Positions 1-61,600 of a DNA stretch of 64,000 nucleotides are shown here, piece by piece. The notes below the pieces were generated by a model. That model made no database searches. It was not told where the DNA came from and was given only the letters and a program-made list of their open reading frames with translations. This stretch comes from an uncultured Alphaproteobacteria bacterium (GTDB lineage Bacteria; Pseudomonadota; Alphaproteobacteria; Micavibrionales; UBA1664). Each line of letters starts with the position of its first letter. Within the stretch, counting starts at the first letter, position 1. The stretch is taken from contig CALSUG010000006.1 in assembly GCA_943789475.1 (NCBI GenBank), positions 199,425-263,424 on the forward strand, given 5' to 3'. A program made the position numbers and the translations under genes.

Positions 1-291
1 ATTGTATAAACAATCATCAACTATATTTTTTGGGGAAGAAAAATTATGATACTATTAACTTTAATTACAATTTTAGGCGCAATTACATTTCCAGCGCTAA
101 TCACATTTTCCATTATCAATGGAAAGCGATCTGAAAAAATTTTTATGCAAACATTGAATAATGCAATGCAATTTAAAAACATTCATAATCACATGGTTCG
201 TTTTGCATTCCATAAATCAGCTGAATTGTAAAAATCACGAAGTTCAGAAACACGTATAATTTGGCCAATATGACGTAAAAACAAGATGCAG

Positions 292-660
292 ATCGGAAGG
301 TCTGTAAGCCGGATTTTGTACACGTTTCTGTTCCACAAAGTGGGGAAACGGTGGCAATCATTCATCTAGGGTGGTTGTCACCAATCACCTCATGCGCCCT
401 ACCCGAACTCCGATGCAAAGATACACCATAATGGAATTCCTATTTGGGCTTGCATCCAACAGGGTTTACAATGCCTTTATTGTTACCAACAAAGCGGTGC
501 GCTCTTACCGCACCTTTTCACCCTTACCTGACAAGCAGGCGGTTTGTTTTCTGTTGCACTTTCCCTCGAGTTACCCCGGGCGGGCGTTACCCGCTGCTGT
601 TTCTTTGTGATGTCCGGACTTTCCTCTTGTTTAAAACAAGCGATCGCCCAACCTTCCGAT
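292..660 (-). ncRNA. rnpB: RNase P RNA, bacterial type A
   Basis: The minus-strand read starts AUCGGAAGGU (660-651) and ends ACCUUCCGAU (301-292), giving a 10-bp P1 helix. It contains GAGGAAAGUCCGGA (626-613) and UACAAAAUCCGGCUUACAG (320-302), both universally conserved RNase P RNA blocks. Track ORFs 371..610 and 444..896 lie inside or across it and are artefacts. Confidence 0.85.
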
Positions 661-20244: not shown

Positions 20245-20250
20245 CCCTAT

Positions 20251-22263: not shown

Positions 22264-22281
22264 AAGGCTGTGTCCTTGTTT

Positions 22282-23424: not shown

Positions 23425-23695
23425 TTCTACAACCTTTATTCAATACATCTTTTAATTTTTGGAAAATAGCGTCTTCAATGGCCTTGCTGGCCTGTTTATT
23501 AATCGGATGATAGATATTAAATATCTGCCCTCCTGATTTGCGTGTCGGATACGTTAAACGGTATCCCGTTTGATCTAACTTTTCATGGATAGCAATACCA
23601 CTGACATAAACGGCATCATTTAAAACCAATGACGCAAAGGCAATTAAACCCGATCTGGCTGGCACTAGGTTAATATCAATATTACTGATTATCAT
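23402..23695 (-). CDS. SpoVG-like protein
   Basis: Starting from the internal Met (MIISNIDINLVP...), the sequence aligns by eye with SpoVG: AFASLVLNDAVYVSGIAI..., YPTRKS.G, and the HPIN motif followed by IEDAI. The track ORF start at 23830 is probably too far upstream. Confidence 0.55.
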   Translation of the reverse strand: MIISNIDINLVPARSGLIAFASLVLNDAVYVSGIAIHEKLDQTGYRLTYPTRKSGGQIFNIYHPINKQASKAIEDAIFQKLKDVLNKGCRNVGYGRD

Positions 23696-23906
23696 CCTGC
23701 GCCTGCCTGTTTTTGCGTTTTGTCGGGATGATTTGTTCCCGTTCGTTAATCGTGACCAGCAATGACATGAAACCTGATAGATTTTGATATGATTCAGCAA
23801 CCTGCCTGTCTGAAACAGGCTGACTTGCAATCTTATTCAAAGCTTTTGAAAATTTGTCATTAAATACCATCCCTATTGTATGCGCATAAATGGCATAGGA
23901 TTGCAC
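23682..23906 (-). CDS. small hypothetical protein (first gene of the Rep operon?)
   Basis: 74-aa ORF overlapping the SpoVG-like start by 14 nt. No recognisable motif. Its position is compatible with an Xis/regulator role, but this is unproven. Confidence 0.3.
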   Translation of the reverse strand: MQSYAIYAHTIGMVFNDKFSKALNKIASQPVSDRQVAESYQNLSGFMSLLVTINEREQIIPTKRKNRQAQDDNQ

Positions 23907-23983
23907 TTAAATCACGGGGTACGAAAAACAGCTATTTCGTACTAAACTATAGAAAATAGAATAATATTAATTTATGATTATTC

Positions 23984-24412
23984 ATGCCTTATAAAATAGC
24001 ACTATTATTACTTTTTGTATTCATGTCCTCTAAAGCCTCTAATGCAGGACTATGCACAAGGGAACTTCAAGAAAAAGCAAATGTTTTTGAGGTTAACTGC
24101 GCAATGGATAAGCGTTTTTGTGAGGTTAACGGCTATATGTCGTCGAACCTATTAAAAACAGGCTATTCAGGTAATTTAGCTTTTTTTCAACAAACACCTG
24201 AAAAATTAAGGACACACAAAAGAGATACTCTAACAATTAGAACATCAAGAGGTGACACTCAAGGCACTGAAACACCTGAAGGGTATTTTGAAGCTATGAA
24301 ATTTGCAGAAAAAAGAATGCTGAACGAACTTGAAGGTGACCTCACATATTTTGACGCTTTAACAGGAAAAATTGTTGATGCTCCAAAAATAGAGTGCATT
24401 CCAACGAAGTAA
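23984..24412 (+). CDS. secreted Cys-containing hypothetical protein
   Basis: 142 aa with a signal peptide (ALLLLFVFMSSKASNA) and no recognisable domain. Confidence 0.45.
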   Translation: MPYKIALLLLFVFMSSKASNAGLCTRELQEKANVFEVNCAMDKRFCEVNGYMSSNLLKTGYSGNLAFFQQTPEKLRTHKRDTLTIRTSRGDTQGTETPEGYFEAMKFAEKRMLNELEGDLTYFDALTGKIVDAPKIECIPTK

Positions 24413-24418
24413 TGCTAC

Positions 24419-25354
24419 TTATTTGATTTGGCGCAGTCCAGCGCTAGACAGCTTTTCTTTCATGGTTTCTAGGGGATATTCACGGTCAAGCATAATGGCT
24501 GAAATAATACCGAATGACAGATTTTTTAAATGCCCTTCATCACCTGTTTTTTCAGCATTCATATTCCATGACACGGCTTTTGATAATATAAAATCTTCAT
24601 CATTTTTCGGTTCTTCTTGCATTTCAGTGCGCACAACAAGAGAGCCTAGCTTTATTGATTCAAGAGTGCTTTTGTCTTTATCCCGTTCTTTGACACATTC
24701 TTTTTCCCATTTTTGGATTGCATCAATAGATACGCCACAGGCATCGGACAAATCGCATTCAGCAACGTATTTTTCTTTACCTTGCCCCATCAATTTATAA
24801 AGATGCTGAACTGTAATCCAGCGCAATTCCTGTAAATCGTATGCATCACCTTGTTTGCGAATGTTGGTTGGTTCTACAAGCCATTCCACTTGTCCTTCAT
24901 TAAGCGCATACAAAGATTTTTCTAAGCCTAAGCGCCATGCCATGCGTCCATATTTCCCAAATGAGTTATGAAGTATTGCACCTATTGCTAGGCGTTCGCA
25001 TATTAATTTTTGATCACCTTCAAAGATATCTTCAGATAAGTCGGGATCATACCACATGGTTTCATTTGTATGCATATTACAGGTTTTTGCATCAATCCAA
25101 CCATCCTTGGATTCCGCAATTTTTTGATATAATCCGAATATCTGATTTTCTGACCATTCAGTCAAAATGCCTGACAATTCACCTACTTTATTTAAGGCCT
25201 GATATGCTTTTTCCTGCTTACCTTTTTCAGATTTTTTTCCATGTTTGGGATCACTATCACGATGCAATTTAACCAACTCATCAACAATATCATGACAGCG
25301 CTGGATTTGTTCGTCCGTTAATTCAGGTCTTTGGAATACTTTTTTTTTATTCAT
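24419..25354 (-). CDS. hypothetical protein (island cargo)
   Basis: 311-aa uninterrupted ORF with no recognisable motif. Confidence 0.5.
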   Translation of the reverse strand: MNKKKVFQRPELTDEQIQRCHDIVDELVKLHRDSDPKHGKKSEKGKQEKAYQALNKVGELSGILTEWSENQIFGLYQKIAESKDGWIDAKTCNMHTNETMWYDPDLSEDIFEGDQKLICERLAIGAILHNSFGKYGRMAWRLGLEKSLYALNEGQVEWLVEPTNIRKQGDAYDLQELRWITVQHLYKLMGQGKEKYVAECDLSDACGVSIDAIQKWEKECVKERDKDKSTLESIKLGSLVVRTEMQEEPKNDEDFILSKAVSWNMNAEKTGDEGHLKNLSFGIISAIMLDREYPLETMKEKLSSAGLRQIK

Positions 25355-25529
25355 ACAACTTTAACTTCTATTACACTAATTGTGCTTTATACTCTTAAAG
25401 TATATAACATCATTTTATTAAACTTATTAACACAGATACAAACCAAATCAAGCAACTCTAAAACCCTTGTTATAGGCGGATAATAAAATCACATCTTGAT
25501 AATAATTCGTTCGTAATGTATCCAAAATG

Positions 25530-25538
25530 GCCTGCCAT
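25530..25538 (+). repeat. right junction core (attR) CCTGCCATT
   Basis: Identical to 18765-18773. It is embedded in AATGGC-CT-GCCATT. Confidence 0.55.
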
Positions 25539-25695
25539 TCAGTCCATCAATCCATCCGACATAGAGAATACGACCTGACAAGCGCGGCATTCCGCGCGAT
25601 GTTGTCATGTGCATCAAGAGGTGACCCCGAGAGAATGTTGTAAAAAGGTGTTTTCTTACCCATTTTCTCTACGCGCAATATTCCACCCGCTGGTT
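25531..25695 (+). repeat. dispersed intergenic repeat, copy A (165 nt)
   Basis: 147/165 identical to copy C without gaps (hand alignment). GC hairpin GCGCGG-CATT-CCGCGC at 25581-25596. Confidence 0.85.
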
Positions 25696-25700
25696 TGCGT

Positions 25701-25826
25701 TTTCCCTGTTTTACAGGGAATTAACAGGGAAATTTTTATTTTTATGAATGCGTTTTGAAATAAACACCAGAGAATTCAGTGCCTACAGACGAAATTATGC
25801 ATTTAGAACAGGGAAAATACAGGGAA
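25701..25826 (+). promoter_or_regulatory. cluster of five ACAGGGAA 8-mers (one inverted), candidate protein-binding iterons
   Basis: TTCCCTGT-ttt-ACAGGGAA (25701-25719), plus ACAGGGAA at 25723, 25808 and 25819. The two direct pairs are each phased 11 nt apart. The last copy ends 1 nt before the stop codon of recombinase 2. Confidence 0.5.
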
Positions 25827-25827
25827 T

Positions 25828-27363
25828 TCACACGTTTTGGATTATCTTAAAACTGCTCAAGATTGCGGACCCAACATAATCACGAGAACACCCTTCGCGT
25901 CTTGCAATTGCGGCAAGAGCTATACCGTCAAAATGTTCATCACGCCATATGGTACCTTGAATAAATTTCTTCAACGCTTTGGCGGGCATATCAAATAGAT
26001 CACGTCCCTTGGCTTTAATAATTTGCGATCCGGCCTGCGCTCGATGCAATTCATAAGGCACGTTCACTACTGCTTCGTCTTGAGAGCAAGTCAAGTGGAT
26101 GTTTAGATGTTTTTGAACAATTTTTGATAGCGGAGTAAGGTCGAAATTGAGGATCAATTGATCCTGGTGAACCATGGCTTTAGTTAAGAGGCACCGCACA
26201 AGATCATAAGACGGAATTGTTGCTTGGTGTTCTAAAAAATATTTTACAGCACTCCCTTCACTGTCATTAATCCATTTAGATAAATTTTGTCTTATTGCGT
26301 TTTCAATTGTAGATTCGATTTCATGAGCAGGAAATCGTGCCCGCAAATAATTAGGATGTCTCTTATCGATTGTCAAAGCATTATTACAGTAATAGCGATA
26401 ACGTTTGCCATTCCCCTTATTTGTAAAAACAGGTGTATAAGGACTGTCGCTTTCATCAAAAATCAAACCTGTCAGTAAATTTCGATGCTTTTGCTTTTTC
26501 TTGCCTCTGTCATCTGGCGCATGGTTTTGTAATAGATCTTGTACAGCATCCCATAATTCTTGAGAAATTATAGCATCGTGAAGCCCATCATGAATTTTAT
26601 CAATGTGTCGAATTTTCCCGATATAGACTGGGTTAGTGAGTATACTGTGTAATGCACCGCGACTAAAATAATGCCCGCCATATTGAACGCCCTTTTGAGA
26701 TATACGAACACGGCTTTTAATTTTGCGCTGCTTTAGTGTATCTGTGAGTTTTCGCAGGAATCCCAACTCTAGATACAGTTCAAAAATATGTTTTGCGATC
26801 GGGGCATCTGTGTCATTTACAATTAACCGTCGATCACCAATATCAAACCCAAATGGAGCACGCCCACCTTGCCACATCCCTTTAGCTTTTGACGCTGCGA
26901 TTTTATCACGGATGCGTTCTCCAGACACCTCTCGTTCAAATTGTGCAAAGGATAATAAAACATTGAGCGTTAATCTTCCCATTGATGTAGTTGTGTTGAA
27001 CGATTGGGTAACACTTACAAATGTGACATCGTGGGCATCGAATACTTCGACTAATTTTGAAAAATCAGTTAGAGATCTGGTCAAGCGATCAATTTTATAA
27101 ACGACGACGGTTTGAATTTTACCCGCCTTGATATCACCCATTAATCGCATGAGCGCTGGACGTTCCAGTGACCCACCCGAAAAACCGCCGTCATCGTAAT
27201 AATCTTTAGACGCTGTCCAACCCTCCGACTTTTGGCTGGTGATGTAGGCCTTACAAGACTCTCTTTGAGCATCAAGGGTGTTGAACTCCATGTCTAATCG
27301 TTCATCGGTAGATTTACGGGTGTATATGGCACAGGTTTTTTGTATAGTTTTCATAGCAACCAT
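25828..27363 (-). CDS. large serine recombinase (second copy, different family member)
   Basis: 511 aa with CAIYTRKSTDE (catalytic Ser region), YKIDRLTRSLTDF, then recombinase and zinc-ribbon-like regions. Confidence 0.9.
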   Translation of the reverse strand: MVAMKTIQKTCAIYTRKSTDERLDMEFNTLDAQRESCKAYITSQKSEGWTASKDYYDDGGFSGGSLERPALMRLMGDIKAGKIQTVVVYKIDRLTRSLTDFSKLVEVFDAHDVTFVSVTQSFNTTTSMGRLTLNVLLSFAQFEREVSGERIRDKIAASKAKGMWQGGRAPFGFDIGDRRLIVNDTDAPIAKHIFELYLELGFLRKLTDTLKQRKIKSRVRISQKGVQYGGHYFSRGALHSILTNPVYIGKIRHIDKIHDGLHDAIISQELWDAVQDLLQNHAPDDRGKKKQKHRNLLTGLIFDESDSPYTPVFTNKGNGKRYRYYCNNALTIDKRHPNYLRARFPAHEIESTIENAIRQNLSKWINDSEGSAVKYFLEHQATIPSYDLVRCLLTKAMVHQDQLILNFDLTPLSKIVQKHLNIHLTCSQDEAVVNVPYELHRAQAGSQIIKAKGRDLFDMPAKALKKFIQGTIWRDEHFDGIALAAIARREGCSRDYVGSAILSSFKIIQNV

Positions 27364-27508
27364 ACATGCTTCCTATATGAAGTAAGTCCAGTTAAATAGA
27401 AATTAAAATTTACTACTTCTTATTAATAATTAATCTATGTGAGTAATAAAAAACCATTAAACTATCGCCGCAGAACAGGATGTTTATCTTAAACTGGAAA
27501 TAACTAGT

Positions 27509-28108
27509 ATGTCTCAAGAACCTATAGGGTGGTTTTTAATCGATAGTAACAACGGTCGTCACGGTCCTTTTGATTGGGTTATTAGTAGTGCTCCTGCGCC
27601 GCAAACCGCAAAATTATTACCATCTCACTTCAAACACCATGACGATATTTCCGCCATAAAAATGCAGGGTTGTTATAGTCTTATGATTGGCTTGCCTGAT
27701 GATTTAAATGTAAAATGGGACGCTGTGAAGGTTAAGAACTCTCCGATTGAATGGATGGCTGTTAATTCCTCTAAACCGCTTTGTGATACTGGGTATTCAT
27801 TGCTTATCCAGACAAGTAATGAATGGGCGCAGGCTCATATCGATGATGATCAAGATGTGGTCAAAGAATTGTTACTGACCGAGACTGAAACGCTGTTACA
27901 GAACAGTATTGGTAATGCTGATTATATCAGCCTACATCGTTGGCGTTATGCGAATACAGTTATTGGTAGTGATCAAGAAAGCCAGATGCACTTTTTAGAT
28001 GAAATTAATAACCTCGCAGCGTGCGGTGACTGGTGTATTAAAGGGAGTGTTGAATCTGCATATTTAAGCGCGTTATCTCTCGCTGAAGCGCTGAAAAAAC
28101 ACTTATAG
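27509..28108 (+). pseudogene. 5'-truncated renalase-like NAD(P)/FAD-dependent oxidoreductase (C-terminal ~60%)
   Basis: HGPFDWVISSAPAPQTAKLL...HRWRYA...CGDWC matches the C-terminal part of ~330-aa renalase-family proteins. The N-terminal dinucleotide-binding GxGxxG region (~130 aa) is absent, and recombinase 2 lies immediately upstream. Confidence 0.6.
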
Positions 28109-32634: not shown

Positions 32635-33885
32635 ATGAAAATTGCAATTATTGGCGCAGGGATATCGGGCATGGGCGCGGCGTATTTATTGTCACGGCAC
32701 CATGATGTCACCCTCTATGAAAAAAACAATTACCACGGAGGTCACAGTCGTACAATTGATGTTGAAATTGGCGGTTACAAAACGCCTGTGGATACTGGAT
32801 TTATCGTTTTTAATAATTGGAATTATCCTCATTTACTTGGACTGTTTAAAGAGCTAGGCGTCCCATATCAAAAAAGTGATATGTCCTTTGGCGTCTCCAT
32901 TGATAATGGTTGGCTGGAATATGGATCGGACGGCATGTTTTCGCAAAAGCGGAATATTGTCCGTCCAAAATATTATGGTATGTTGGCCGATATATTACGG
33001 TTTAACAAACAAGCATTGACCTATATTGAAAAAGATTCTGAAATTACGCTGCAACAATGTTTGGATGAGCTCAACATGGGAGATTGGTTTCGCCGATATT
33101 ACATGTTGGCGATGGGCGCCGCGATTTGGAGTTGTCCTATCGAAACAATTATGAAATTCCCTGCGAAAACATATCTAAGGTTTTTCAAAAATCATGGGTT
33201 GCTAAGCGTGAATAATCGCCCTCAATGGTATACAGTGACAGGCGGAAGCCGTGAATACACATCGCGGTTAATCGATAAAATAAAAGGCACAACCCAATTC
33301 ACATGTGGTGCAAAAAATATCAAACGTGATGGGGAACATGTCCATGTGACGGACATGCATGATAAAACAGAAATATATGATCAGGTTGTCATGGCATGCC
33401 ACGCTGATGGAGCTTTGGCTATGATCGAAAAACCGACACAAAATGAAGTGGAAATTCTGGGTGGTTTTCAATATCAAGACAACCACATTATCGTCCATTC
33501 CGACGAAACATTCATGCCAAAAACAAAAAAATGTTGGGCTAGTTGGGTTTATTTATCAGAAGGTCGAGAGGATAAGAATGACGCCGTGTCCCTGACATAT
33601 TGGATGAATAATTTACAAGATTTAAATCGTGAGCATCCAATTTTTGTGACGCTTAACCCGGGACGACGCCCTGACGAAAATAAAATTATGGACGAACATG
33701 TTTTCTCTCATCCCATTTTTGATTTAGGCGCGATACAATCACAAGATAGGATTGATAAAATTCAAGGCAAAGATAATTTGTGGTTCTGTGGTGCATATCA
33801 ACGCTATGGTTTCCACGAAGATGGTCTTCTAAGCGCGGTAAATGTTGCCAAGGCAATGGGGATATCAATTCCATGGGAAAAATAA
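32635..33885 (+). CDS. FAD-dependent amine-oxidase-like oxidoreductase (COG2907; UfaD-like)
   Basis: MKIAIIGAGISGMGAAY dinucleotide fold, 416 aa. Conserved partner of DUF1365 and CFA-synthase-family genes. Confidence 0.8.
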   Translation: MKIAIIGAGISGMGAAYLLSRHHDVTLYEKNNYHGGHSRTIDVEIGGYKTPVDTGFIVFNNWNYPHLLGLFKELGVPYQKSDMSFGVSIDNGWLEYGSDGMFSQKRNIVRPKYYGMLADILRFNKQALTYIEKDSEITLQQCLDELNMGDWFRRYYMLAMGAAIWSCPIETIMKFPAKTYLRFFKNHGLLSVNNRPQWYTVTGGSREYTSRLIDKIKGTTQFTCGAKNIKRDGEHVHVTDMHDKTEIYDQVVMACHADGALAMIEKPTQNEVEILGGFQYQDNHIIVHSDETFMPKTKKCWASWVYLSEGREDKNDAVSLTYWMNNLQDLNREHPIFVTLNPGRRPDENKIMDEHVFSHPIFDLGAIQSQDRIDKIQGKDNLWFCGAYQRYGFHEDGLLSAVNVAKAMGISIPWEK

Positions 33886-39605: not shown

Positions 39606-41038
39606 CAAACACCCCTATTATTGTTTGGTTTCGACAAGACTTACGCCTGCGCGATAATCCCGCTTTTATCGCGGCGGCTGAAACAGGACAACCCGTTTTA
39701 CCTATTTATATTTTAGATGATGAAAATGCAGGTGATTGGAAAATGGGCGCGGCAAGCCAATGGTGGCTCCATCACTCTTTAACATCTCTGAATAAAAATT
39801 TGGATGGTAATTTACGTGTATATCATGGTGATGCCTCAACAATTATTAGCGATATTATAACCGAAACAAAGGCAACTACGCTTTATTGGAATCGATGCTA
39901 TGAACCATGGCGGATAGCGCGTGATAAAGGCATTAAATCTTCTTTAAAGGATAAACATATTCATGTGCAAAGCTTTAATGGATCATTATTGTTTGAGCCA
40001 CATGCTGTTTTAAAAGAAGATGGCACGCCCTATAAAGTCTTTACGCCCTTTTACCGCAAAGGATGTTTGGAACGGAATGTAGAGCCTCCCAAACCACAAG
40101 ATACACCTGATGCAATCGAATACTATTACGCTACAAACAAAACACAAATTAGCGATTTAAAACTATTGCCAACGATCCCATGGGACACAACGATGCGTGA
40201 AGAATGGACAATTGGTGAGGACGGCGCGCAAAAACGTCTATCTGAGTTTTTAAATAATGGCCTAAATAATTATAAAGAAGGACGCAATCATCCTGCGCAA
40301 GACAATGTGTCGCGCTTGTCCCCTTATCTGCATTTTGGTGAGATCTCTCCGCGTGATATATGGCATGAGACCAAGGCGACAATGGTCGCCCAAGGATTAG
40401 AAAAAGACGGTGATCATTTTTTAAGCGAGATTGGCTGGCGCGAATTTTCGAATAATTTACTGTATCACTTCCCAGATTTACCACGAGAAAACTTACAAAA
40501 AAAATTCGATTATTTTCCATGGTGTGATGACCAAGAAGCATTGAAAGCATGGCAAACAGGACAGACAGGATATCCAATTGTTGATGCCGGTATGCGCGAG
40601 TTGTGGCAGACAGGGTACATGCATAACCGTGTCCGTATGATTGTTGGATCGTTTTTAGTCAAAAATCTGCTCCTCCACTGGCACCATGGCGAGAGTTGGT
40701 TCTGGGATACATTGGTGGATGCTGATTTGGCTAATAACAGCGCGTCTTGGCAATGGATCGCAGGATGTGGCGCTGACGCCGCGCCTTATTTCCGCGTTTT
40801 TAACCCCATAACACAGGGACAAAAATTTGATAAAGACGGAACATATATCCGAAAATATATTCCTGAAATCGCCGCCCTTCCTGAAAAATATCTGAATTGC
40901 CCTTGGGAAACCCCCCAAGACATACTTAATCATTGTGGTATTACATTAGGCAAGACTTACCCAAACCCCATTGTTGATTTAAAAGTGTCCCGTGAACAAG
41001 CGCTCAATGCCTTTCAATCAATTAAAGAGAATAGTTAG
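39602..41038 (+). CDS. phrB: deoxyribodipyrimidine (CPD) photolyase, class I
   Basis: MTNTPIIVWFRQDLRLRDNPAF, SRLSPYLHFGEIS, GWREF, TGYPIVDAGMREL..TGYMHNRVRMIV, DADLANNSASWQW and FRVFNP. Starts at the internal ATG at 39602. Confidence 0.9.
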   Translation: MTNTPIIVWFRQDLRLRDNPAFIAAAETGQPVLPIYILDDENAGDWKMGAASQWWLHHSLTSLNKNLDGNLRVYHGDASTIISDIITETKATTLYWNRCYEPWRIARDKGIKSSLKDKHIHVQSFNGSLLFEPHAVLKEDGTPYKVFTPFYRKGCLERNVEPPKPQDTPDAIEYYYATNKTQISDLKLLPTIPWDTTMREEWTIGEDGAQKRLSEFLNNGLNNYKEGRNHPAQDNVSRLSPYLHFGEISPRDIWHETKATMVAQGLEKDGDHFLSEIGWREFSNNLLYHFPDLPRENLQKKFDYFPWCDDQEALKAWQTGQTGYPIVDAGMRELWQTGYMHNRVRMIVGSFLVKNLLLHWHHGESWFWDTLVDADLANNSASWQWIAGCGADAAPYFRVFNPITQGQKFDKDGTYIRKYIPEIAALPEKYLNCPWETPQDILNHCGITLGKTYPNPIVDLKVSREQALNAFQSIKENS

Positions 41039-41043
41039 CGGCG

Positions 41044-41205
41044 GACTACAACCTCTGCCATTCAGTCCATTAATTTCATAAATTATCGATAATTACTCCG
41101 TGTGCCCCGCTTCACGCGGCGCTTGTTGATCTATTCCTTCTCGACGGATCACGGAGAACGAAATATATCACGCTATTTCACCCTTTTTCTCTACGCGAAA
41201 TAACT
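41044..41205 (+). repeat. dispersed intergenic repeat, copy B (diverged interior)
   Basis: Shares GACTACAACC-N-CTGCCATTCAGTCCAT at the 5' end and CACCC(T/A)TTTTCTCTACGCGAAAT at the 3' end with copies C/A. The interior differs but keeps a GC hairpin at 41104-41122. Confidence 0.7.
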
Positions 41206-41346: not shown

Positions 41347-43428
41347 TTACATTAGCTGTTTTTTTATTTTAGCTATTTCGTTTTGAATAGAATTCAGCAA
41401 GCTATTTTTTGTCTGAATTGTTGCTTGATACATCCCTTCCGCTTCGGCGCAAATAAATGCTAGCTTTTCAGCACGCATATTAGCAGCAGATCCTTTGATT
41501 TTATGAGCCGCTTTACGCCATCGTTGGTTATCATCACTATCTATTGCACCTTTTAAGCTCTCTACAGCCTCATCCGATGTTGTGAAAAATAAATCAAAGA
41601 GCATTCTTTCATCTTCTGAGTCACTGCCAAATAATTCACGTAATGCAGGAAGATCGACTGGTGTTAGTGTATCGACAGATACGGGATCTTGATTTTGGAT
41701 ATTTTCCGAGGATGTTGGAATGCTTGATTCAGCAGAACTTAAATCTAACTCTTCATACCGCACCCATTTTTGTAACGTTTGTTGTAGGGCGTTTGGGTCC
41801 ACAGGTTTGCTAAGATAATCATCCATTCCCGCGGCAATACATTTTTCACGATCTCCCTTCATTGCATTTGCAGTCACTGCAATAATAGGTGTATGAAGCG
41901 CATTACCTTGATGCATTTTACGAATAGATTCTGTTGTTTCAAAACCGTCCATACCAGGCATTTGGCAATCCATTAAAATGGCATCATACATTCCAACTTG
42001 TGTGTATTCAAAGGCTTCTTGTCCATTATCAACCATTTGCACTCGATCAATTCCCATTTTTTTCAAAAGTTTTCGCATATACATCAGATTAATCGGATGA
42101 TCATCAACAACCATGATATTCGCATTGGAAAAATCAACTTTAGTCAAATGACGCGTATCTGTTGACGTGTGGGTAGTATCGATATCCGCCTCGATAATTG
42201 GGATTTTAAACCAGAAACTAGATCCCTGTCCTTCAATACTGTGAACACCTATTGCGCCCCCCATAAGCTCGGTTAATTTTTGACTTATGCTAAGACCTAA
42301 ACCTGTTCCGCCAAATCGTCGAGATGTAGATTCATCCGCCTGTGTGAATTTCATAAAAATATCATTTAGTCGATCTTTTGGAATACCAATTCCCGTATCA
42401 TCAACAACAATTTTCATCATATTATCTTCAGTACGAGAGAGTGTTAAAGCTATCTCTCCTTTATCAGTGAATTTAAGCGCATTACCGATAAGGTTAATTA
42501 TAATTTGCTGTAATCGTGTTGAATCTCCGATCAGCCCTGCAGGAAGACTAGAGGGATAATGATATTTGAATTCAATTTTTTTATCTTCTATTTGAGATTT
42601 GAGTAATTTTGTTGTGTCATCAATGACCGCTTTTAAATTAAAAGGAATATTTTCAAGTGTCATTTCTCCCGCTTCGATCTTTGAAAAATCGAGAATATCA
42701 TTGAGTAATATAAGAAGAGATTCGGATGATTTATTGATAGCCTCAATCGATTGTTCTTGCTCTGCATTTAATGGGGTATCCATAAGTAAATCAGATAAAC
42801 CAATAATACCATTCATCGGGGTGCGGAGCTCGTGACTCATATTTGCTAAGAATTCACTTTTTGAAACATTAGCAGTTTCTGCCTTTTCTATTTGACGCTG
42901 CAATTCAATCTCGCTGGCTTTACGTTCAGTTACATTACGCTCTATTGCTGTAAAATGCGTAACAACACCTTTGTCATCTTTCACGGGGGTGATATTGATG
43001 TCTAACCAATATTCAGCACCATCTTTTGAGAAATTTTTAAGTTCACCTTGAAATGATTTTCCATTAGATAGTTTTTCTTTGAGGTCGTCTAAGACATTTC
43101 TATCCGTTGCATTACCTTGAAAAATACGGGGCGTTTTTCCAATAACCTCTTCTGCGGTATAGCCTGACAATTTGGAAAAAGCATGGTTCACATAGATGAT
43201 ATTGGGCCCATTGACCAAATCGGAATCCGTAATCATGATCGCATCTTTTGCGTTAACAACTGTTGCTTCTAATAACCGGATGTTTTCATGAAGATTTATG
43301 TTTATATCGTAAAGCTCTTGGCTTTTTTTCTCTAATAAAATTTCGGCCTGTTGGCGCGCATTTTTTTCGCGCGCAAGCCGTTTCTTCATGCGTTCTATTT
43401 TATGTTCTGCGTCATTATCAATTGTCAT
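41347..43428 (-). CDS. cytoplasmic hybrid histidine kinase (coiled coil, PAS, HisKA, HATPase_c, REC, HPt)
   Basis: 693 aa. H-box [29 protein letters not shown], receiver ILMDCQMPGMDG and HPt AHKIKGSAANM. ATGA overlap with the H-NOX stop. Confidence 0.9.
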   Translation of the reverse strand: MTIDNDAEHKIERMKKRLAREKNARQQAEILLEKKSQELYDININLHENIRLLEATVVNAKDAIMITDSDLVNGPNIIYVNHAFSKLSGYTAEEVIGKTPRIFQGNATDRNVLDDLKEKLSNGKSFQGELKNFSKDGAEYWLDINITPVKDDKGVVTHFTAIERNVTERKASEIELQRQIEKAETANVSKSEFLANMSHELRTPMNGIIGLSDLLMDTPLNAEQEQSIEAINKSSESLLILLNDILDFSKIEAGEMTLENIPFNLKAVIDDTTKLLKSQIEDKKIEFKYHYPSSLPAGLIGDSTRLQQIIINLIGNALKFTDKGEIALTLSRTEDNMMKIVVDDTGIGIPKDRLNDIFMKFTQADESTSRRFGGTGLGLSISQKLTELMGGAIGVHSIEGQGSSFWFKIPIIEADIDTTHTSTDTRHLTKVDFSNANIMVVDDHPINLMYMRKLLKKMGIDRVQMVDNGQEAFEYTQVGMYDAILMDCQMPGMDGFETTESIRKMHQGNALHTPIIAVTANAMKGDREKCIAAGMDDYLSKPVDPNALQQTLQKWVRYEELDLSSAESSIPTSSENIQNQDPVSVDTLTPVDLPALRELFGSDSEDERMLFDLFFTTSDEAVESLKGAIDSDDNQRWRKAAHKIKGSAANMRAEKLAFICAEAEGMYQATIQTKNSLLNSIQNEIAKIKKQLM

Positions 43429-43967
43429 TTTTTCTTGAGTGTAAAGATGCGGGAATACATTTCATCTGTATTTTGATCTTCACTGTCTATCTCTATATCT
43501 TCTTTATAAAAATCTATACATCCTGCCATCAACCCATGTGCAAAATCGGCAAAGGGACATTGGGATTCGTAAACCATTATTAAAGTCTTATCGTCTTCAC
43601 GGGTCGTTTTGAAAGAAGGCAAGTTTGCTTCTGGATATAATTTTTTAACTTCAACATGGATCGTGTCATGAACACTTTCTAAAAATTCAAATGCGGATTG
43701 TGGTTCTTCAAAAAAATGTGGCATTAATTCGCTAAACCTCGAAAAAAGATGATGCCCATACTTATAAACAAGATCCTTAACTGGAATATTTGAATGCTTA
43801 CTGAGTGCGCCAACAAGATGTAAAAGCTCAACATGATTATAAGTTCCGACCGCCGTGTAAGCTCCGTCAGTTTCTAACTCACAATCATCAATAATATCAT
43901 CCACCATATCTGTACCGAACAAGGTCTCAACTAGTTGAAAAAATTCTGTAAAGACGATGCCCTTCAT
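43425..43967 (-). CDS. H-NOX (heme nitric oxide/oxygen binding) sensor protein
   Basis: 180 aa with MKGIVFTEFFQLVE, the proximal-His region VHDTIHVEVKKLYPEANLP, and a YESQC variant of the YxSxR motif. Confidence 0.8.
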   Translation of the reverse strand: MKGIVFTEFFQLVETLFGTDMVDDIIDDCELETDGAYTAVGTYNHVELLHLVGALSKHSNIPVKDLVYKYGHHLFSRFSELMPHFFEEPQSAFEFLESVHDTIHVEVKKLYPEANLPSFKTTREDDKTLIMVYESQCPFADFAHGLMAGCIDFYKEDIEIDSEDQNTDEMYSRIFTLKKK

Positions 43968-44060
43968 ATAAGATGCCCCTTATTTTTAAGTTTTATGCAT
44001 TTTCAGTGTATCGAGAAAGGTTAAAAACAAGAATAAGATTAGTTAAAATGTCATACATTC

Positions 44061-45431
44061 TTATGCTGTTTTGTATTCACGCACCTTACGATAGAGTGTT
44101 GATTTTGCGAGCCCCAATGATTTTGCTGCCTGTGTCATGTTGTTATTATGATGATGCAAAGCCTCTTTAATCATCACGATTTCCATTTCTTCTATCGTTT
44201 TATAAGGAGTGGATATTTCATCTATATTAGGAATGTCCTTCTCCTTACTTTGGTTTAATTGTTTTTGAAGAGGAAAATCCGAGATTTGTAATCGTACATT
44301 ATTGCTTAACACAAAGGCGCGATGAACACTGTTTTCCAGTTCACGTACATTTCCTACCCACCGTCTTTTTTGTAAGACCATAACCGTTTTTGGATCAATA
44401 TTTTTTTTAGGCATATTCGCAGTGATCGCAATATTGTTCATGAAACAATCAATGAGTGTTGGAATATCTTGTGGTCGATCTCGCAAGGCAGGAATACGCA
44501 TCTGTAATACATTAAGACGATAATAGAGATCTTCGCGAAACAATCCCTTTTGCACATCATTTTCTAGATTTCTATGTGTCGCGGCAATAATACGCACATT
44601 GACCTTAATAGATCGTGATGCCCCCACAGGTTCAACTTCTTTTTCCTGCAGAACACGGAGCAATTTAACCTGAGCCTCCAACGGCAAATCACCGACTTCG
44701 TCTAAGAATACAGTCCCCCCATCGGCCTCACGAAATTTACCGATTTTACTTTCTGTCGCACCCGTGAACGCACCTTTTTCATGACCAAATAATGTACTTT
44801 CAACTAAATCTGCGGGAATAGCACCACAATTGATTGCAATAAAGGCGGCGCCAGATTGCGAACTTTCCCCATGAATGGCCTTTGCAAACAACTCCTTACC
44901 AACACCTGTTTCTCCGTTAATTAAGGTCGGAAGATCAACCATGGCCGCTTTACGCCCTAATTGAACTATTTCACTTAATCCACCATCATGACCAATCATA
45001 TTATCGAATGTGAAACGATCTGTTTTGTCATGCTTTAATCGCACAATTTCTTTTTCCATCGTCTGCATTTTCAGAACGTTTTGAATTGTCACCGTCATAC
45101 GATCTTTATCGTATGGTTTACTAATATAATCGGACGCACCAATTTTAATTGCCTCTACGGCTTGCTCTAAATCTTGTGCGCCAGACACCATAATTACAGG
45201 AAGGGATGGATATAACTTTTTAATCTTCTTTAATACATTCATTCCATTCATAATCGGCATTTCAATATCAGATATGACTAAAGATATTGTTTTCTTCGTT
45301 AACAAAATTTCAAGAGCTTTACGGCCATTTTCTGCCACATAGGAATGTAAATTCATTTTAGTGCGCAGAAATGCTTCTAATATTACCCGCTGGGTTGCGT
45401 CATCCTCGATAATCAAAACTGTTTTAGCCAT
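44061..45431 (-). CDS. sigma-54-dependent response regulator (NtrC/LuxO class)
   Basis: REC domain ([13 protein letters not shown]), AAA+ Walker [15 protein letters not shown] loop (EKGAFTGA) and a C-terminal Fis-type HTH ([15 protein letters not shown]). Confidence 0.9.
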
Positions 45432-45457
45432 ACATTGAGCATATCACAAAAAGCATC

Positions 45458-45479
45458 ATAATGATAATTTTATCATTAT
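45458..45479. promoter_or_regulatory. perfect 9-bp inverted repeat ATAATGATA-ATTT-TATCATTAT, candidate enhancer (UAS) site
   Basis: Lies ~90 nt upstream of the sigma-54 promoter, in the divergent intergenic region next to the activator gene. An extra ATGATA half-site is present near 45492. Confidence 0.4.
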
Positions 45480-45549
45480 AAAACGATCAAAAATGATAGG
45501 CTAAGAATAATCGTCATGCTATCGTATTGATTTTACAAACTATTTTATT

Positions 45550-45565
45550 TGGCACGTTCATTGCT
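45550..45565 (+). promoter_or_regulatory. sigma-54 (-24/-12) promoter TGGCAC-N5-TTGCT
   Basis: TGGCACGTTCATTGCT matches the consensus TGGCAC-N5-TTGCW with GG-N10-GC spacing. It is followed by SD AGGAAGGAG (45581-45589) and the ATG at 45597. Confidence 0.7.
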
Positions 45566-45596
45566 CTTATACTATTACGCAGGAAGGAGACAACGT

Positions 45597-46511
45597 ATGA
45601 AAATAGCCACTCACAACTCTGAAAAACTCCTCTTGGCCGATTTGCGTGAAGCAAGGATCGGAAATCCAACTCATCGTTGTCTCCTTTTGCGACTATCCAA
45701 GGCGAAAGAACCCATGACCACATGGCTACCACGCTTGGAACGCTCCCTCCGTCACACATTAGGGGAAACAATTAATCAAGTTTACCTGACTCATGATCAA
45801 GATGTATTCATATACGGTTGGGGAATCACTCAAACATTGGTACAAGATCTAATGTTTGATTTGTCAGAAACACTTTCTGGCAAAACCCTACAAGGCTTAA
45901 TACATTTTTATGAAATTGGCATACATTGGGATGAGCTAGAATCCATGTGTGTTGGAAAAGTTCGTGCATTTGAGGCAAAACAAAAACAAGAAAAATCCGT
46001 TAAACAAAGCAATGAATTTGAAAAAATTTCTGCTGATGATGCATTTAAGGAAATGGACTCATCCTTAATAAAATCAATTGAAAAACGTCGATCAACACGC
46101 AAAGATCCTAAAATACTAATTGTTGAAGATGATGTTTTTTCTCAAACCCTTATTAAAAAGGCACTGAACGACAAATATGATTTGGCCTTATCCGATGATG
46201 GCCAAGGCGCAATTTTAGGGTATGTGAAGGTCGCACCAGACATTATGTTTCTAGATATAGAATTACCTGATATTAATGGTCATGATGTTTTGAAAAAAAT
46301 TAAAATGATTGATAAGAACGCTTATGTTGTCATGTTTAGCGGAAATGGTGATCGTGAAAATATTTTAAAGGCTCTTGATCTTGGTGCACAAGGATTTGTG
46401 GGCAAACCTTTTGCAAAAGAAAAGTTAATCCAGTACATCGAAAAATCACCATCTGTGAAACAAAAAACATCCACTCGAAACACAATAAACGCAAAGGAAA
46501 AATTATCATGA
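45597..46511 (+). CDS. response regulator with C-terminal REC domain and ~170-aa N-terminal domain of unknown function
   Basis: C-terminal KILIVEDD...IMFLDIELPDINGHDVLKKIK...VVMFSGNGD...GFVGKPF. Starts at the Met after the SD; the track start at 45549 is upstream of the promoter. Confidence 0.75.
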   Translation: MKIATHNSEKLLLADLREARIGNPTHRCLLLRLSKAKEPMTTWLPRLERSLRHTLGETINQVYLTHDQDVFIYGWGITQTLVQDLMFDLSETLSGKTLQGLIHFYEIGIHWDELESMCVGKVRAFEAKQKQEKSVKQSNEFEKISADDAFKEMDSSLIKSIEKRRSTRKDPKILIVEDDVFSQTLIKKALNDKYDLALSDDGQGAILGYVKVAPDIMFLDIELPDINGHDVLKKIKMIDKNAYVVMFSGNGDRENILKALDLGAQGFVGKPFAKEKLIQYIEKSPSVKQKTSTRNTINAKEKLS

Positions 46512-46669
46512 ATCCAATCATTCCTATGTTTTTTATTACGCTATTTATGATGGCCATAACTATGACCTTGGCTCTATCACCTGACGCATCAATAGGATGC
46601 ATAATGCTGGGCACAGAAATTAATGGTGACTACTCAACTGAATATTTATTCTTGGGCGATTGCCGTTAA
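46508..46669 (+). CDS. possible translationally coupled 53-aa hydrophobic/secreted peptide
   Basis: ATGA overlap with the regulator stop. Sequence MNPIIPMFFITLFMMAITMTLALSPDASIGCIMLGTEINGDYSTEYLFLGDCR has a signal-like N-terminus and 2 Cys. Not in the ORF track (<60 aa). No homology evidence. Confidence 0.25.
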   Translation: MNPIIPMFFITLFMMAITMTLALSPDASIGCIMLGTEINGDYSTEYLFLGDCR

Positions 46670-46705: not shown

Positions 46706-47427
46706 CTATTCTTTATTATAGATTACTGGCATTTCACCTTTCCACTCTGACCATTTATTATTATCTGTAATCAACTCTGCCATAAAGTGACCTACGTTAA
46801 TACGGCTGGTTTTACCTGCATCAAAAATTGCATCTCTGATTGGTGATGAGTGCAGATCATATGCAGTAACGTCGGCACAATCAATCAAGCCATCTGGACG
46901 CACCACAACCCATTCAATGACCTCATCATTCTGCCCAATTTGAGTACGCAAATAATCAGCAGCTTCCTCATTATCCACATGTGGAGGAAGTAGTAAACGA
47001 AGAAGCCAAATTACACATTTATGACTGCAAGAAACTTCCTCATTCAAATCACGATTACGGTTTCCTGTTGTGTTCATAAGGACAAACTTGATTGCTTTTT
47101 TCGAATCGCTTGCCTTGACGGCATTACACAGTCTTCTCGTTGCATCTGTCACGAGTCTGCGTGGCGATCCAAACATTCCCTTAAAAGTTAAATTGTGGCC
47201 TAAGCATGATATCAACGCATCACAACCTTGCACATGCCCCTCCATTTCAATATCACTAAGCTCTAATATGCTTGCGTTATTAACAATAGATTTTCATGGT
47301 TCCTGATTTTTTCAGGAAGGCTATCCATTGATCGAACAACGGCTTTTACTTTTTGCCCTCGTCCAAGTAATTGCTCAACAAGCAAACGGCCTGTTGCACC
47401 GCTTGCACCTACCACAAGAACTGTCAT
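46706..47427 (-). pseudogene. NmrA/atypical-SDR NAD(P)H-binding protein, disrupted by a 1-nt frameshift
   Basis: The N-terminal frame reads MTVLVVGASGATGRLLVEQLL...ENLLLITQAY* (47427-47263). The C-terminal frame reads ..NNASILELSDIEMEGHVQGCDALISCLGH... (to 46706). The two frames can only be joined between 47263 and 47296. Confidence 0.65.
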
Positions 47428-47577
47428 CGTTTTCTTTCTATTTTATGATTATCCATTAGATATTATGGCATAATAACATGAAAATTCGACGCTCTTTGAA
47501 AACAATTAAAGTTGCCAACTTTATCGACAATGATTTTGCACTTGTAATGTACTAAAAATAGAGAAAATTTATTACCT

Positions 47578-47753
47578 GACTACAACCACTGCCATTCAGT
47601 CCACCAATCCATCCGACATAGAGAATACGACCTGACAAGCGCGGCTTTCCGCGTGGTGTTGCTATGCATGTCAAAAGGTGACGCCTAGAGAATGTTGTAG
47701 AAAGGTGTTTTCTCACCCATTTTCTCTACGCGAAATATTTCACCCTCTGGTTT
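47578..47753 (+). repeat. dispersed intergenic repeat, copy C
   Basis: See copy A. It includes the 10-nt upstream extension GACTACAACC shared with copy B. Confidence 0.85.
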
Positions 47754-58600: not shown

Positions 58601-61600
58601 TTAATCAATCAAACAAGTTGTTTCACTTGAATTCCAAACCAGGCAAGATGCCGAAGAAGTAGATATTTGCAAATCTTCTAATTCATTTTTTTTCTGTTTA
58701 TTTTTCTTTTTGGAAGGTTTAGATACTTTGTTCTCAACAAATGTTGCCACATAATTATCTATATTATTATCTGGAACACCGGCAGCGGGGCCATTTTCAA
58801 ATATAAATTTATTATCTGTTCCCGTTACGGATGCAGGTGAGAGGTTTGCATGTGTTTCATGGTAAACCTCTGTTCCAATCAAACCATTAGGAGAAAAATC
58901 CAAATAATTCTTCGCATAAATTAAGAACCGACCGCTATCTGAATCAATGGCTGATGCACCAACATTGTTAACAAGATCACCTTCAATATTTAAAATAACG
59001 GTACTACCAGATCCTGATCCTGTAACAGCTCCACTGTTCAACACTATATCTCCTTGTGTACTCTCTAGATACACTACACCTCCACCAGTCAAACCATTAT
59101 CTACCGTTATAGTGCCTCCGAAGACACTCAAATCATATCCAGATGGAGAAACGTCAACATTATCTATATTAACAACACTTGTCGTTTCATCTTCACCAAT
59201 ACGCAGCTCGTTAACAGCAGAAAAACGATTGATATCTGTATTATCAAGAACCAACGTTCCTGCTCCAGATCCTAAACCAACTGTTGCTCCGACTGTTCTT
59301 GTTAGAAGGGTTAAATTATTCCCTGATGAGATGGTCGGTGTATTAAAAAAATCATAACTATCTGCGTTTAGCTTTATATTCGCGTTCGTTGTTGACACCT
59401 CCCCGTCACTCATAAAAATATCATCATTGTTTGAACCTGATCCTCGCCCCTCACCTGTAATGTTGATTTCACCGTCAACAGAGGTTACTTGCGTTCCAAC
59501 TTGTCTAATGTGAACACCGTGGTTAGAATTTGTTCCTTCTCCACCGACACCACTAATCACGATTGTTGCCGCATCTGTCCCTGTTCCTGTGGAAGATATT
59601 GCGGCACTATCGTTTATATAAACACCAAAATTTTCGTGGTCCGCTCCACTACTATTCCCCTCACCTACAATTGAAATATTCCCATCTACAGACGTTATCG
59701 TGGTTCCAGCCCCCTTAACATTAATACCAAAATTAGATCTACTTCCATGTCCTGCCGTTCCATTCAAAGTGATTGTTGCCGCATCTGCCCCCGTCCCCGT
59801 AGAAATAACATCTACTCCACGACTAAGAAATATTCCAACATTATTTTGACCTGCAACGTTTCCACCATTACCTGTGATTAGAATATCCCCATCTACCGAG
59901 GTTATCCGCGCATCATTTACGGCATTTATACCATGATTATATTGACTTCCTAATGCACCCGTACCAGTCAAAGTAATTTTTCCAGCATTCACCCCAACAC
60001 CTGTTGATAAAATTTTAGCGCTGTTAGAAAATTGAATTCCTACGTTTGACTGATCCGTACCATCACTTCCCCCTAAACCTGTAATCTGCAAATTTCCATC
60101 CACGACAGAGATTGTTGCGCTACTCCTACTATAATATCCAATATTACCTCGCCCACCAGCACCCCCAGTTGCATTGATGGTAATATCCGCGGCATTAACA
60201 CCCGTTCCTGTAGAAATAATGTCCGCGCCATTTTCTGTGTATAAACCATAATTACTATCACCACCGCTACCGTCACTTCCGCCAAGGGCCGTGATATTTA
60301 TATCACCTACAATAGAATTAATAATTGTATTACCATCAGTTAAATAAACACCATGATTTTGCGTTGTACCATTTCCACCTGTACCGTTTATTGTAATTTC
60401 TGAAGCATCTGAGCTTGTTCCTACCGATGATACTTCGGCGTTAGATGCCACTATAATACCGTAATTTTGGCCACCACTTCCATGACCACCCTGACCTATG
60501 ATCTCAACATTACCAGCAACCGATGTTATTTGCGTTCCTGTATCTTCAACACGCACTCCATAATTAAGACTATCTCCATTCGCTCCTGTACCGTTTATTG
60601 TAATTTTAGCAGCATTTACGCCAGTACCAGTTGATGCAATATCAGCATCAACTTCTATAAAAGTACCATAATTATAATTGCTTCCTGCTGCTCCATTGGA
60701 GCCACCTTGACCAGTGATATTAACATCACCATCAATTGAAGTGATTAAAGAACCTCCATTTGTATGTCTTATTCCATGGTTGTAATCACCGCCAGCGCCA
60801 CCAGTACCATCCAGTGTTATTTTCGCGGCATTTACACCTGTTCCCGTTGAGGTTATATCGGCGTCACCCATCAAAGTAATACCGTAATTCTGCGCACTCA
60901 CATCCGCTCCATTAGAGCCACCTTGACCAGTGATATTAACATCACCATCAATTGAAGTAATTAAGCTACCCGCATCATCAACACGAACACCGTGATTGTT
61001 ATCTTCACCAGCACCACCAGTACCATCCAGTGTTATTTTTGCGGCATTTGCACCTACTCCTGTTGAACTTATATTCGCTCCCGAGACAACACTAATCCCA
61101 TAGTTGTTGGCACTTCCTGCCGCTCCGTTGGATCCACCTTGGCCCGTAATATCAATATTCCCCTCTACAGATGTAAGAGATGCGCTATTTAAAGTAACCC
61201 CAACACCTCCACCTTGAGCTAAAGCTCCCGTACCATCCAGTGTTATTTTTGCGGCGTTCACACCCGTACCAGTTGAACTTATGTCTGTTCCTGATATAAG
61301 GTTAATCCCCACATTACCCGACGTTCCTACCGTCCCAAAAGAACCTGCTTGACCAACAAAATCAATGTCTCCATCAACGGAGGTTATTGTTAAATCTCGA
61401 CCATAAACCCCATAATTGTTATCTTCTCCAACGCCACCAGTCCCGTTAAAATTTAAAGTTGCTGCATTGACACCAGCTCCGGTTGAGGAAATAGTTGTAT
61501 CTTGGAGATATATACCAATATTACTATCGCTTCCCGCAACACCAGTCGTGCCACCTTGACCAGTGATATTAATATTACCTTCCGCCGAGGTAATGTCTGC

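Follow-up and report, generated by a model that had tools for sequence, protein, structure and literature searches.

We find that the 165-nt repeats in the window, by which we mean the whole 64,000-nt stretch of DNA that was analysed, are best explained as the end segment of an island family. The islands encode a large serine recombinase (LSR) of the type that we call SR2, the repeated unit would be the end that lies next to the recombinase gene, and integration would occur at the CT dinucleotide in the acceptor end of tRNA-Trp; we put the probability of this reading at roughly 0.6. If the unit is an island end segment, its copies mark island borders and are neither a new RNA gene nor a mini-element. 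A preliminary description of this DNA had left the repeat family unclassified; with the unit now found at 10 other loci, the family can be assigned to these islands at the probability just given.

The unit is present three times in the window (n = 3), always on the + strand. The copies, with their hairpins and short boxes, are as follows.

25532-25696, + strand: copy A, taken to be the tRNA-linked (attL-type) unit of the resident SR2 element; hairpin GCGCGG-CATT-CCGCGC at 25582-25597
25564 and 25631 (GAGAA), 25665 (TTCTC): boxes of copy A
41055-~41219, + strand: copy B, with 5′ CTGCCATTCAGTCCA and 3′ CACCCTTTTTCTCTACGCGAAATA conserved and a core unrelated to that of A and C
41104-41122: hairpin of copy B, GCCCCGC-TTCAC-GCGGCGC
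47589-47753, + strand: copy C, 89% identical to A; hairpin GCGCGG-CTTT-CCGCGT at 47639-47654
47621 and 47688 (GAGAA), 47710 and 47722 (TTCTC): boxes of copy C

The 5′ motif CTGCCATTCAGTCCA occurs in exact copies at 25532, 41055, and 47589. If up to three mismatches are allowed, the window contains six matches to this motif, three of them exact, and none of 100 shuffled sequences reaches six. The 3′ motif CACCCWTTTTCTCTACGCGMAAT is found at 25657, 41179, and 47714, where the number expected by chance is 0. Copies A and C are identical at 147 of 165 positions (89%) without a gap, and they may have been homogenised by gene conversion. Copy B resembles A and C at both ends only, because its 102-nt core is just 32% identical to theirs, a value that 113 of 500 shuffles equal; the spacing of the end motifs is nonetheless nearly the same (115 vs 116 nt). 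Upstream of B and C, the sequence GACTACAACC is held in common, and the likeness extends for ~30 nt (80% over 49 nt). B and C also lose their 3′ homology at nearly the same point. Neither nhmmer nor BLAST detected a fourth copy in the window and the ~13 kb of contig next to it. The preliminary description had reported three copies in the same orientation, an ungapped A/C match of 147/165, a copy B that keeps only its termini, and some further upstream identity between B and C, and all of this was reproduced, with the upstream homology proving longer than had been noticed.

The three copies differ in their settings. Copy A is followed by SR2. Copy B is flanked by a photolyase gene, whose stop codon is on one side, and by a hybrid histidine-kinase gene, whose 3′ end is 140 nt away. 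Copy C lies beyond a block of kinase, H-NOX, sigma-54 activator, and response-regulator genes; its homology to A ends at CTGGTTT, and downstream of C there is no recombinase.

The relationship of the unit to a tRNA is clearest outside this genome. The window itself has one relevant tRNA gene.

18696-18771, + strand: tRNA-Trp (CCA anticodon), identified by ARAGORN and Rfam

The last bases of this tRNA, CT-G-CCA (18766-18771), are also the first bases of the repeat family. Beyond this genome, we recovered the unit at 10 other metagenomic loci (L141/L158/L217, L209, L210, L215, L216, L218, L219, L220/221, L229, and L233), and at each of them it starts in the CTGCCA end of a tRNA-Trp, with a junction that reads ..CCC-CTGCCA-TTCAGTCC.. 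At one of the 10, only a 3′ fragment of the tRNA is present; ARAGORN calls full tRNA-Trp genes in which G-CCA is contiguous with the unit. A scan of IMG/VR with the 5′ 15-mer gave 112 matches, and the two loci that proved real when judged with a profile of A, B, and C were both linked to tRNA-Trp. A scan of metagenomes with the 5′ 20-mer gave 11 matches, of which six were real, all six linked to tRNA-Trp, and the other five were chance matches in coding DNA. L219, L220/L221, L229, and L233 were added through the genomic context of SR2 homologues. The 3′ motif is conserved only among the closest relatives, and scanning IMG/VR with it yielded chance matches only. Patterns requiring both ends of the unit were matched nowhere in JGI metagenomes or in genomes totalling 596 Gb, and BLAST against plasmids and phages returned no match.

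The second partner of the unit is a recombinase gene, which in the window lies just past copy A.

25828-27363, - strand: SR2, an LSR of 511 aa, convergent with the unit, its 3′ end 132 nt after copy A
25701-25732: palindrome TTCCCTGT-N-ACAGGGAA (AATTCCCTGTT-A-AACAGGGAATT) with further ACAGGGAA half-sites, between copy A and the SR2 stop codon

Wherever there is enough DNA downstream of the unit (the window, L158, L210, L215, L219, L220/221, L229, and L233), a convergent LSR follows that is 58-80% identical to SR2. The order of these loci is tRNA-Trp, unit, ACAGGGAA repeats at most loci, and then the convergent SR2-type LSR. L209 ends inside the unit and so says nothing about linkage to an LSR, and L216 and L218 contain the island-specific CAGGGAA repeats. 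In the window, the palindrome and three to four further ACAGGGAA half-sites lie within 25701-25826; the palindrome and its half-sites are conserved in L215, L216, L218, L219, L229, and L233 and are absent after copy C. This region looks like an operator or a set of putative binding sites for a dimeric protein. SR2-type recombinase genes are usually preceded by genes for DUF2924, DUF5681, and a ParB-like N6/N4 methylase together with variable cargo, and the SR2 of the window has none of these usual partners. A DUF2924 gene precedes the SR2-type LSR in every other island, and in the window the start of SR2 is instead abutted by a C-terminal fragment of an amine oxidase (27364-28108; 199 aa, profile positions 238-442), of which a full copy lies at 32635-33885. 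The missing DUF2924 gene and the abutting fragment together indicate that the SR2 element has been truncated or rearranged.

The similarity of the unit among loci follows the recombinase rather than the tRNA. Between L158 and L210, the unit is 81% identical, the LSR 87%, and the tRNA 82%. When L215 or L220 is compared with L210, the tRNA is 100% identical, but the unit is only 60% identical and the LSR 61-64%, where the random baseline of the aligner is ~48%. Over all pairs, the identity of the unit correlates with that of the LSR (Spearman rho 0.65, p 0.008), whereas its correlation with the tRNA is not significant (rho 0.22). At L229, the tRNA fragment is nearest to that of L158, whereas the unit and the LSR are nearest to those of L215/L220. 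L220 and L221 share a block of island, unit, and tRNA that is 99.87% identical, and their units have zero differences where the compared sequences overlap, whereas their host flanks are 93-98% identical or unalignable. Because similarity of the unit tracks the recombinase rather than the host tRNA, we conclude that the unit belongs to the island, where it lies between the att crossover and the LSR gene.

The opposite assignment would make the unit host DNA, namely a 3′ flank of tRNA-Trp (a trailer, a terminator, perhaps a co-transcribed RNA) that is native to this alphaproteobacterial clade and conserved in it, with B and C as chromosomal paralogues and with the distal end of the unit serving SR2-type islands as attB. 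This would agree with the position of the unit, which is always directly after tRNA-Trp, and with the sharp end of A-to-C homology at CTGGTTT, just before the island-specific ACAGGGAA repeats. It would also agree with the L158-type unit, which breaks off at TTTTCTC, just 45 nt away from the stop codon of the recombinase gene, and with the unit at L227:3336-3397, which retains its 5′ half only, including a good terminator-like hairpin followed by T5. We nonetheless regard a host origin as unlikely, because identical tRNAs carry units that are just 60% identical, and because the L220/L221 units are alike inside an island block of 99.87% identity while the host flanks differ by 2-7%. In addition, no tRNA-linked locus without an island signature was recovered (L209 being uninformative in this respect), and a host flank gives no mechanism for paralogues that lack a tRNA and share a conserved left arm.

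In the window, the tRNA-Trp gene and copy A are separated by an island with a second LSR, SR1, which is only 27% identical to SR2.

18679-20232, - strand: SR1, an LSR of 517 aa (Pfam Resolvase and Recombinase)
~18768-25531: SR1 island, ~6.8 kb, between tRNA-Trp and copy A

The sequence CCTGCCATT is present at both ends of this island, once where the island meets the tRNA (18765-18773) and once where copy A begins (25531-25539). The island is bounded internally by a P′ arm, GCCATTTTTGATA (18768-18780), and a P arm, TATCCAAAATGGC (25519-25531). When the two are joined again, the rebuilt SR1 attP, TATCCAAAATGGC-CT-GCCATTTTTGATA, has arms that are inverted repeats at 12 of 13 positions, and its centre is the acceptor-end CT of the tRNA. 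Judging from this arrangement, CT 18766-18767 is the putative crossover dinucleotide, and the tRNA-to-unit junction is evidently the site that SR1 used. The uninterrupted form of that site, in which the tRNA is directly joined to the unit, is present at the 10 other loci. Since the order of tRNA-Trp, unit, and SR2-type LSR holds at other loci, copy A was formerly contiguous with the tRNA-Trp of the window. It had been proposed previously that the homology of A begins in the tRNA-Trp 3′ end as the right arm of an attB, and both the 10 joined loci and the palindromic attP bear this out.

The final ~31 codons of SR1 run antisense across the entire tRNA-Trp gene (18679-18771). Thus the attP must have lain within the 3′ end of the recombinase gene, and integration alters the C terminus of the protein. 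The cargo of the SR1 island (20251-25354) encodes proteins of 670 aa, 380 aa, and 311 aa and a SpoVG-like protein; the 380-aa protein has a weak PHROG match to a replication protein, and PADLOC gave no matches in this cargo. Searches of neighbouring unknown proteins with PADLOC and PHROGs gave nothing informative. A 3′ part of a tRNA-Trp lies at L229:11830-11875 and a 5′ part at L233:~11770-11810, with tyrosine-integrase genes nearby, so other types of island also stack at tRNA-Trp. Around the three copies in the window, no tyrosine integrase was found among the Pfam-scanned genes. tRNA-Trp is a known hotspot of composite islands (PMC8978831), and attP sites often complete their target gene (PMC12884075).

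Copies B and C have no tRNA beside them. In the place where the tRNA stands elsewhere, they have a conserved left arm of ~30 nt, and between them lies a conserved gene block.

41024-41054, + strand: left arm of copy B, AAAGAGAATAGTTAGCGGCGGACTACAACCT, a putative P arm, with a GAGAA box at 41027
47557-47588, + strand: left arm of copy C, ATAGAGAAAATTTATTACCTGACTACAACCA, a putative P arm, with a GAGAA box at 47561
41347-46666: conserved block of hybrid histidine kinase, H-NOX, sigma-54 activator, response regulator, and a 53-aa open reading frame

The photolyase gene ends inside the left arm of B, with its stop codon at 41036-41038. The site reads GGACT-ACAACCT-CT-GCCATTC-AGTCC, with mirror symmetry at five of five outer positions about the CT at 41055-41056, and C keeps four of these five. 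The same kind of symmetry is seen at locus L227 (GACTG-N6-CT-N6-CAGTC), where the left arm at 3336-3397, GAAGAATAGTTATCGCCTGACTGCACGCA-CT-GCCATTCAGTCCATAAATTTCA, is homologous to that of B and lies on the far side of the kinase block. A profile of the left arm also matches L227:9698-9740 (E 7e-4). This match coincides with the far end of a bona fide SR2-type island; it has the last gene of the island on one side and the 3′ end of the kinase gene on the other, where B is placed in the window, and a decayed unit follows it. A third and weak left-arm-like sequence, AAAAGAGAATTGTTATCACCAGGCTA (E 1.6), is found at L227:3895-3920, ~520 nt from the good copy. The P arm was also sought at the far ends of L229, L221, L219, and L158 and was absent there, save for a weak candidate at L221:2224, and the terminus of the block shared by L220 and L221 has a sequence unlike the left arm. 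The 29 matches of a degenerate left-arm pattern in IMG/VR were copies of one unrelated prophage sequence.

Because the left arm mirrors the right arm and recurs at the far end of the L227 island, B and C look like recombination products with the structure P arm-CT-P′/B′. Placed as they are at synteny breakpoints, they look like junction scars of a composite island array; copy C may be either a relic island end or a displaced native flank. We found no remnants of a recombinase or of island genes beside B or C, so an array requires extensive decay, and the common 3′ endpoint of B and C would have to be a coincidence if their deletions were independent, which counts against an array.

The preliminary description had suggested that B and C could be secondary attB sites. 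Its first element, a relation to att sites, stands, since the right half-site used at the tRNA, CT-GCCATTCAGTCC, is present unchanged in B and C. The further step, that they are unoccupied secondary or pseudo-attB sites for SR1 or SR2, seems to us quite improbable, since their left arm is conserved and is not tRNA-like; B and C have it in common with two L227 sites, and one of these is at the far end of an SR2-type island. Moreover, the left arm mirrors the right arm as in an attP, which fits a recombination product, and a pseudo-attB leaves the conservation of 150 nt past the half-site unexplained.

The kinase block has its own history. In L224-226, the closest relatives that we found (response regulator 92% identical), this block is surrounded by different genes, and neither of its ends has a unit. 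In L227/L228, where the kinase is 67% identical, the block adjoins the bona fide SR2-type island. Its neighbours thus vary: polA flanks it on one side in L224, and both L227 and the window have an SR2-type island. A search with the hybrid kinase for related genome loci returned distant paralogues only. The NmrA-like NAD-binding gene to the left of C (46706-47427) is split into 54-aa and 179-aa pieces, so it is a frameshift pseudogene unless the assembly is wrong here; splits of this kind are numerous in ENA contigs of the strain (in Peripla_BP and adhesin genes). Elsewhere, the window encodes two giant surface proteins rich in repeats, namely a 2483-aa RTX/cadherin-like adhesin (8144-15595; ~735-nt repeats), which adjoins a type I secretion system, and a 1622-aa protein of the two-partner-secretion type with ~210-nt repeats (58601-63469), as well as a bacterial RNase P RNA of class A (289-659, minus strand, 312 bits).

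Inside the unit, a GC hairpin lies at +45 to +75 in each copy and in all 12 family members examined, and in 12 of 12 copies the hairpin that scores as locally strongest falls at +38 to +51. Its stems differ in sequence (GCGCGG/CCGCGC, GCGGCG/CGCCGC, GCCCCGC/GCGGCGC, TGTGTACCG/CGGTGTGCA). The preliminary description was thus right to give each copy a central GC hairpin, and it went too far in calling the hairpin compensated, because column-wise covariation in an alignment of eight sequences is not above that of controls. As many cells are paired in 45 of 500 shuffles, and the covariation score is attained by 83 of 500. Even when the 3′ partner is slid by -2, 84% of cells still pair, because the stems are (GC)n-like. 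In the relatives, the tail of the hairpin is T-rich (GGTTTTGC, CTTTGC, GGGTTTTTC), with a U tract in L219, L216, and L227. The window copies have weak tails (GATGTTG, TTGTTG), which do not satisfy a 5-of-8 U-tract rule, and a consensus scan found no sigma-70 promoter or terminator in or beside these copies. We read the hairpin as a putative weak terminator, or an insulator, that would separate the tRNA from the recombinase gene transcribed towards it.

Short GAGAA boxes occur at fixed positions of the unit, forward at +33 and +100 and inverted (TTCTC) at +122 and +134, and GAGAA is also found at -27 in the left arms of B, C, and one L227 site (L227b). The background in the window is 0.2 GAGAA per 215 nt, and we suspect that the boxes are binding sites for an accessory protein. 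A more elaborate version, which we consider rather improbable, is that the right arms of attP and attB are identical over 15-25 nt, so that attL cannot be told from attB, nor attR from attP, and that the GAGAA boxes form a lambda-like complex att site. If the right arms are identical, new SR2-type or SR1 islands could keep entering the same tRNA CT and build arrays, and integration could be reversible by the integrase alone. Serine integrase sites are normally simple. If the complex site is real, an accessory protein such as DUF2924 would read the boxes and set the direction of recombination, which would be unusual for serine integrases.

A small structured RNA, either an sRNA or a tRNA 3′ external spacer RNA with selection on its ends and hairpin, would account for the equal spacing of the ends around the unrelated core of B, for the conserved position of the hairpin (12/12), and for the folding of the C minus strand, which is better than that of shuffles (z -2.5). 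Against it, Rfam gave no match at the gathering threshold or at E<=10, the promoter and terminator scan was empty, covariation is at the control level, other folds are no better than shuffles, and the conserved motifs are invariant boxes rather than paired columns; we consider such an RNA very unlikely. Three further candidates on or near this segment were set aside: a 38-aa minus-strand open reading frame (MGKKTPFYNIL...; 25532-25669), which is open in A and L218 and interrupted by stops in C, L158, and L215, so that it is probably no gene; a sigma-54 promoter or Qrr-like sRNA beside the LuxO-like neighbour, where the spacing is unfit and Rfam has no match; and a long closing stem on the C minus strand, in which the differences between A and C break the pairing without compensation.

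A MITE-like non-autonomous mobile element, which is the least probable of these readings, would explain the perfect 10-bp inverted repeat TAGAGAAAAT ... ATTTTCTCTA that brackets copy C 150 nt apart and the conserved ends around a variable core, but copy B shows no inverted repeat at seed 6, the left repeat is absent from tRNA-linked copies, the repeat of copy C is one of the GAGAA boxes, no target-site duplication was found, the other family members are all tRNA-linked, and the two-ended patterns were unmatched in the genomes and JGI metagenomes described above. The preliminary description had kept both a MITE and a small structured RNA as options, and neither is sustained by an Rfam match, significant covariation, a promoter or terminator consensus, or dispersed copies.

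Taken as an island end, the unit would have the following role. SR2-type islands, usually with DUF2924, DUF5681, and the ParB-like N6/N4 methylase, would integrate at the CT of tRNA-Trp, and the first ~25 nt of the unit, CT-GCCATTCAGTCCAYCAATCCAT, would be the right half of the att site; because these nucleotides replace the G-CCA end of the tRNA, the tRNA would remain intact. The hairpin and its weak U-rich tail would most plausibly halt read-through from tRNA-Trp into the convergent recombinase gene. The tRNA-Trp site of the window would be a composite array, in which the later and unrelated SR1 island entered the same CT and so separated copy A from tRNA-Trp. As junctions within the array or at its distal end, B and C would each consist of a ~30-nt P arm, the CT, and the unit, and together they would bracket the H-NOX/kinase block. 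No empty tRNA-Trp site or circular junction was recovered among the loci examined, so we infer the exact SR2-type crossover only from the symmetry and from B, C, and L227, and the order of events given here is likewise a reconstruction.

If this is correct, the repeats provide a usable border map of islands stacked at tRNA-Trp, with the H-NOX/kinase block and possibly the photolyase cluster inside the array. They would also define a widespread group of serine-recombinase islands, apparently alphaproteobacterial from the source names of the homologues, which have a precise tRNA-Trp target and variable cargo including helicase, nuclease-related, and other genes. Candidate attB and attP sites can be read directly from the data and thus may be of practical use in integrase prospecting, and the GAGAA-box region beside a serine-integrase site is a concrete lead for the binding of an accessory factor.

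Among known systems, MITEs, REP/ERIC repeats, and integron attC sites are likewise short repeats between genes in which the ends are conserved, the core varies, and a hairpin is present, but the unit differs from them in having no consistent terminal inverted repeats, target duplication, dispersal, or integron integrase. As for attC, a GTTRRRY core (GTTAGAT) occurs only after B, and the inverse core is absent at the 5′ ends. Intrinsic terminators and tRNA 3′ trailers share with the unit a GC-rich stem-loop 45-75 nt past the CCA that is free in sequence and has a T-rich tail, whereas the tails in the window are weak and fail the consensus scan. The attP of the lambda type is complex, with short boxes fixed on both sides of the crossover, as here at -27, +33, +100, +122, and +134, but the recombinase family differs and the resemblance is one of layout only.

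Islands at tRNA genes, such as Shewanella CGI48 at tRNA-Trp (PMC8978831) and the Islander/TIGER islands (PMC12884075), resemble what we describe in that the island supplies the displaced 3′ end of the tRNA, tRNA-Trp is a hotspot, several islands are stacked, and direct repeats stand at the borders. Such arrays are usually the work of tyrosine integrases and involve the duplication of a tRNA fragment, whereas here the enzymes would be serine recombinases working on the final bases of the tRNA, and most of the repeated block is not tRNA. Also comparable are the att sites of phage-type LSRs (phiC31, Bxb1, TP901-1, and SprA of SPbeta), where the LSR gene likewise adjoins the site, the site is an imperfect dyad about a non-palindromic central dinucleotide, here CT, and the junctions are hybrids with swapped half-arms. 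The sites described here are unlike these in three respects. The target is the acceptor end of a tRNA and not a protein-coding gene; the putative right arms of attP and attB are identical over 15-25 nt; and ~140 nt beyond the half-site are conserved, with GAGAA boxes, whereas classical sites are simple and ~40-50 bp long.
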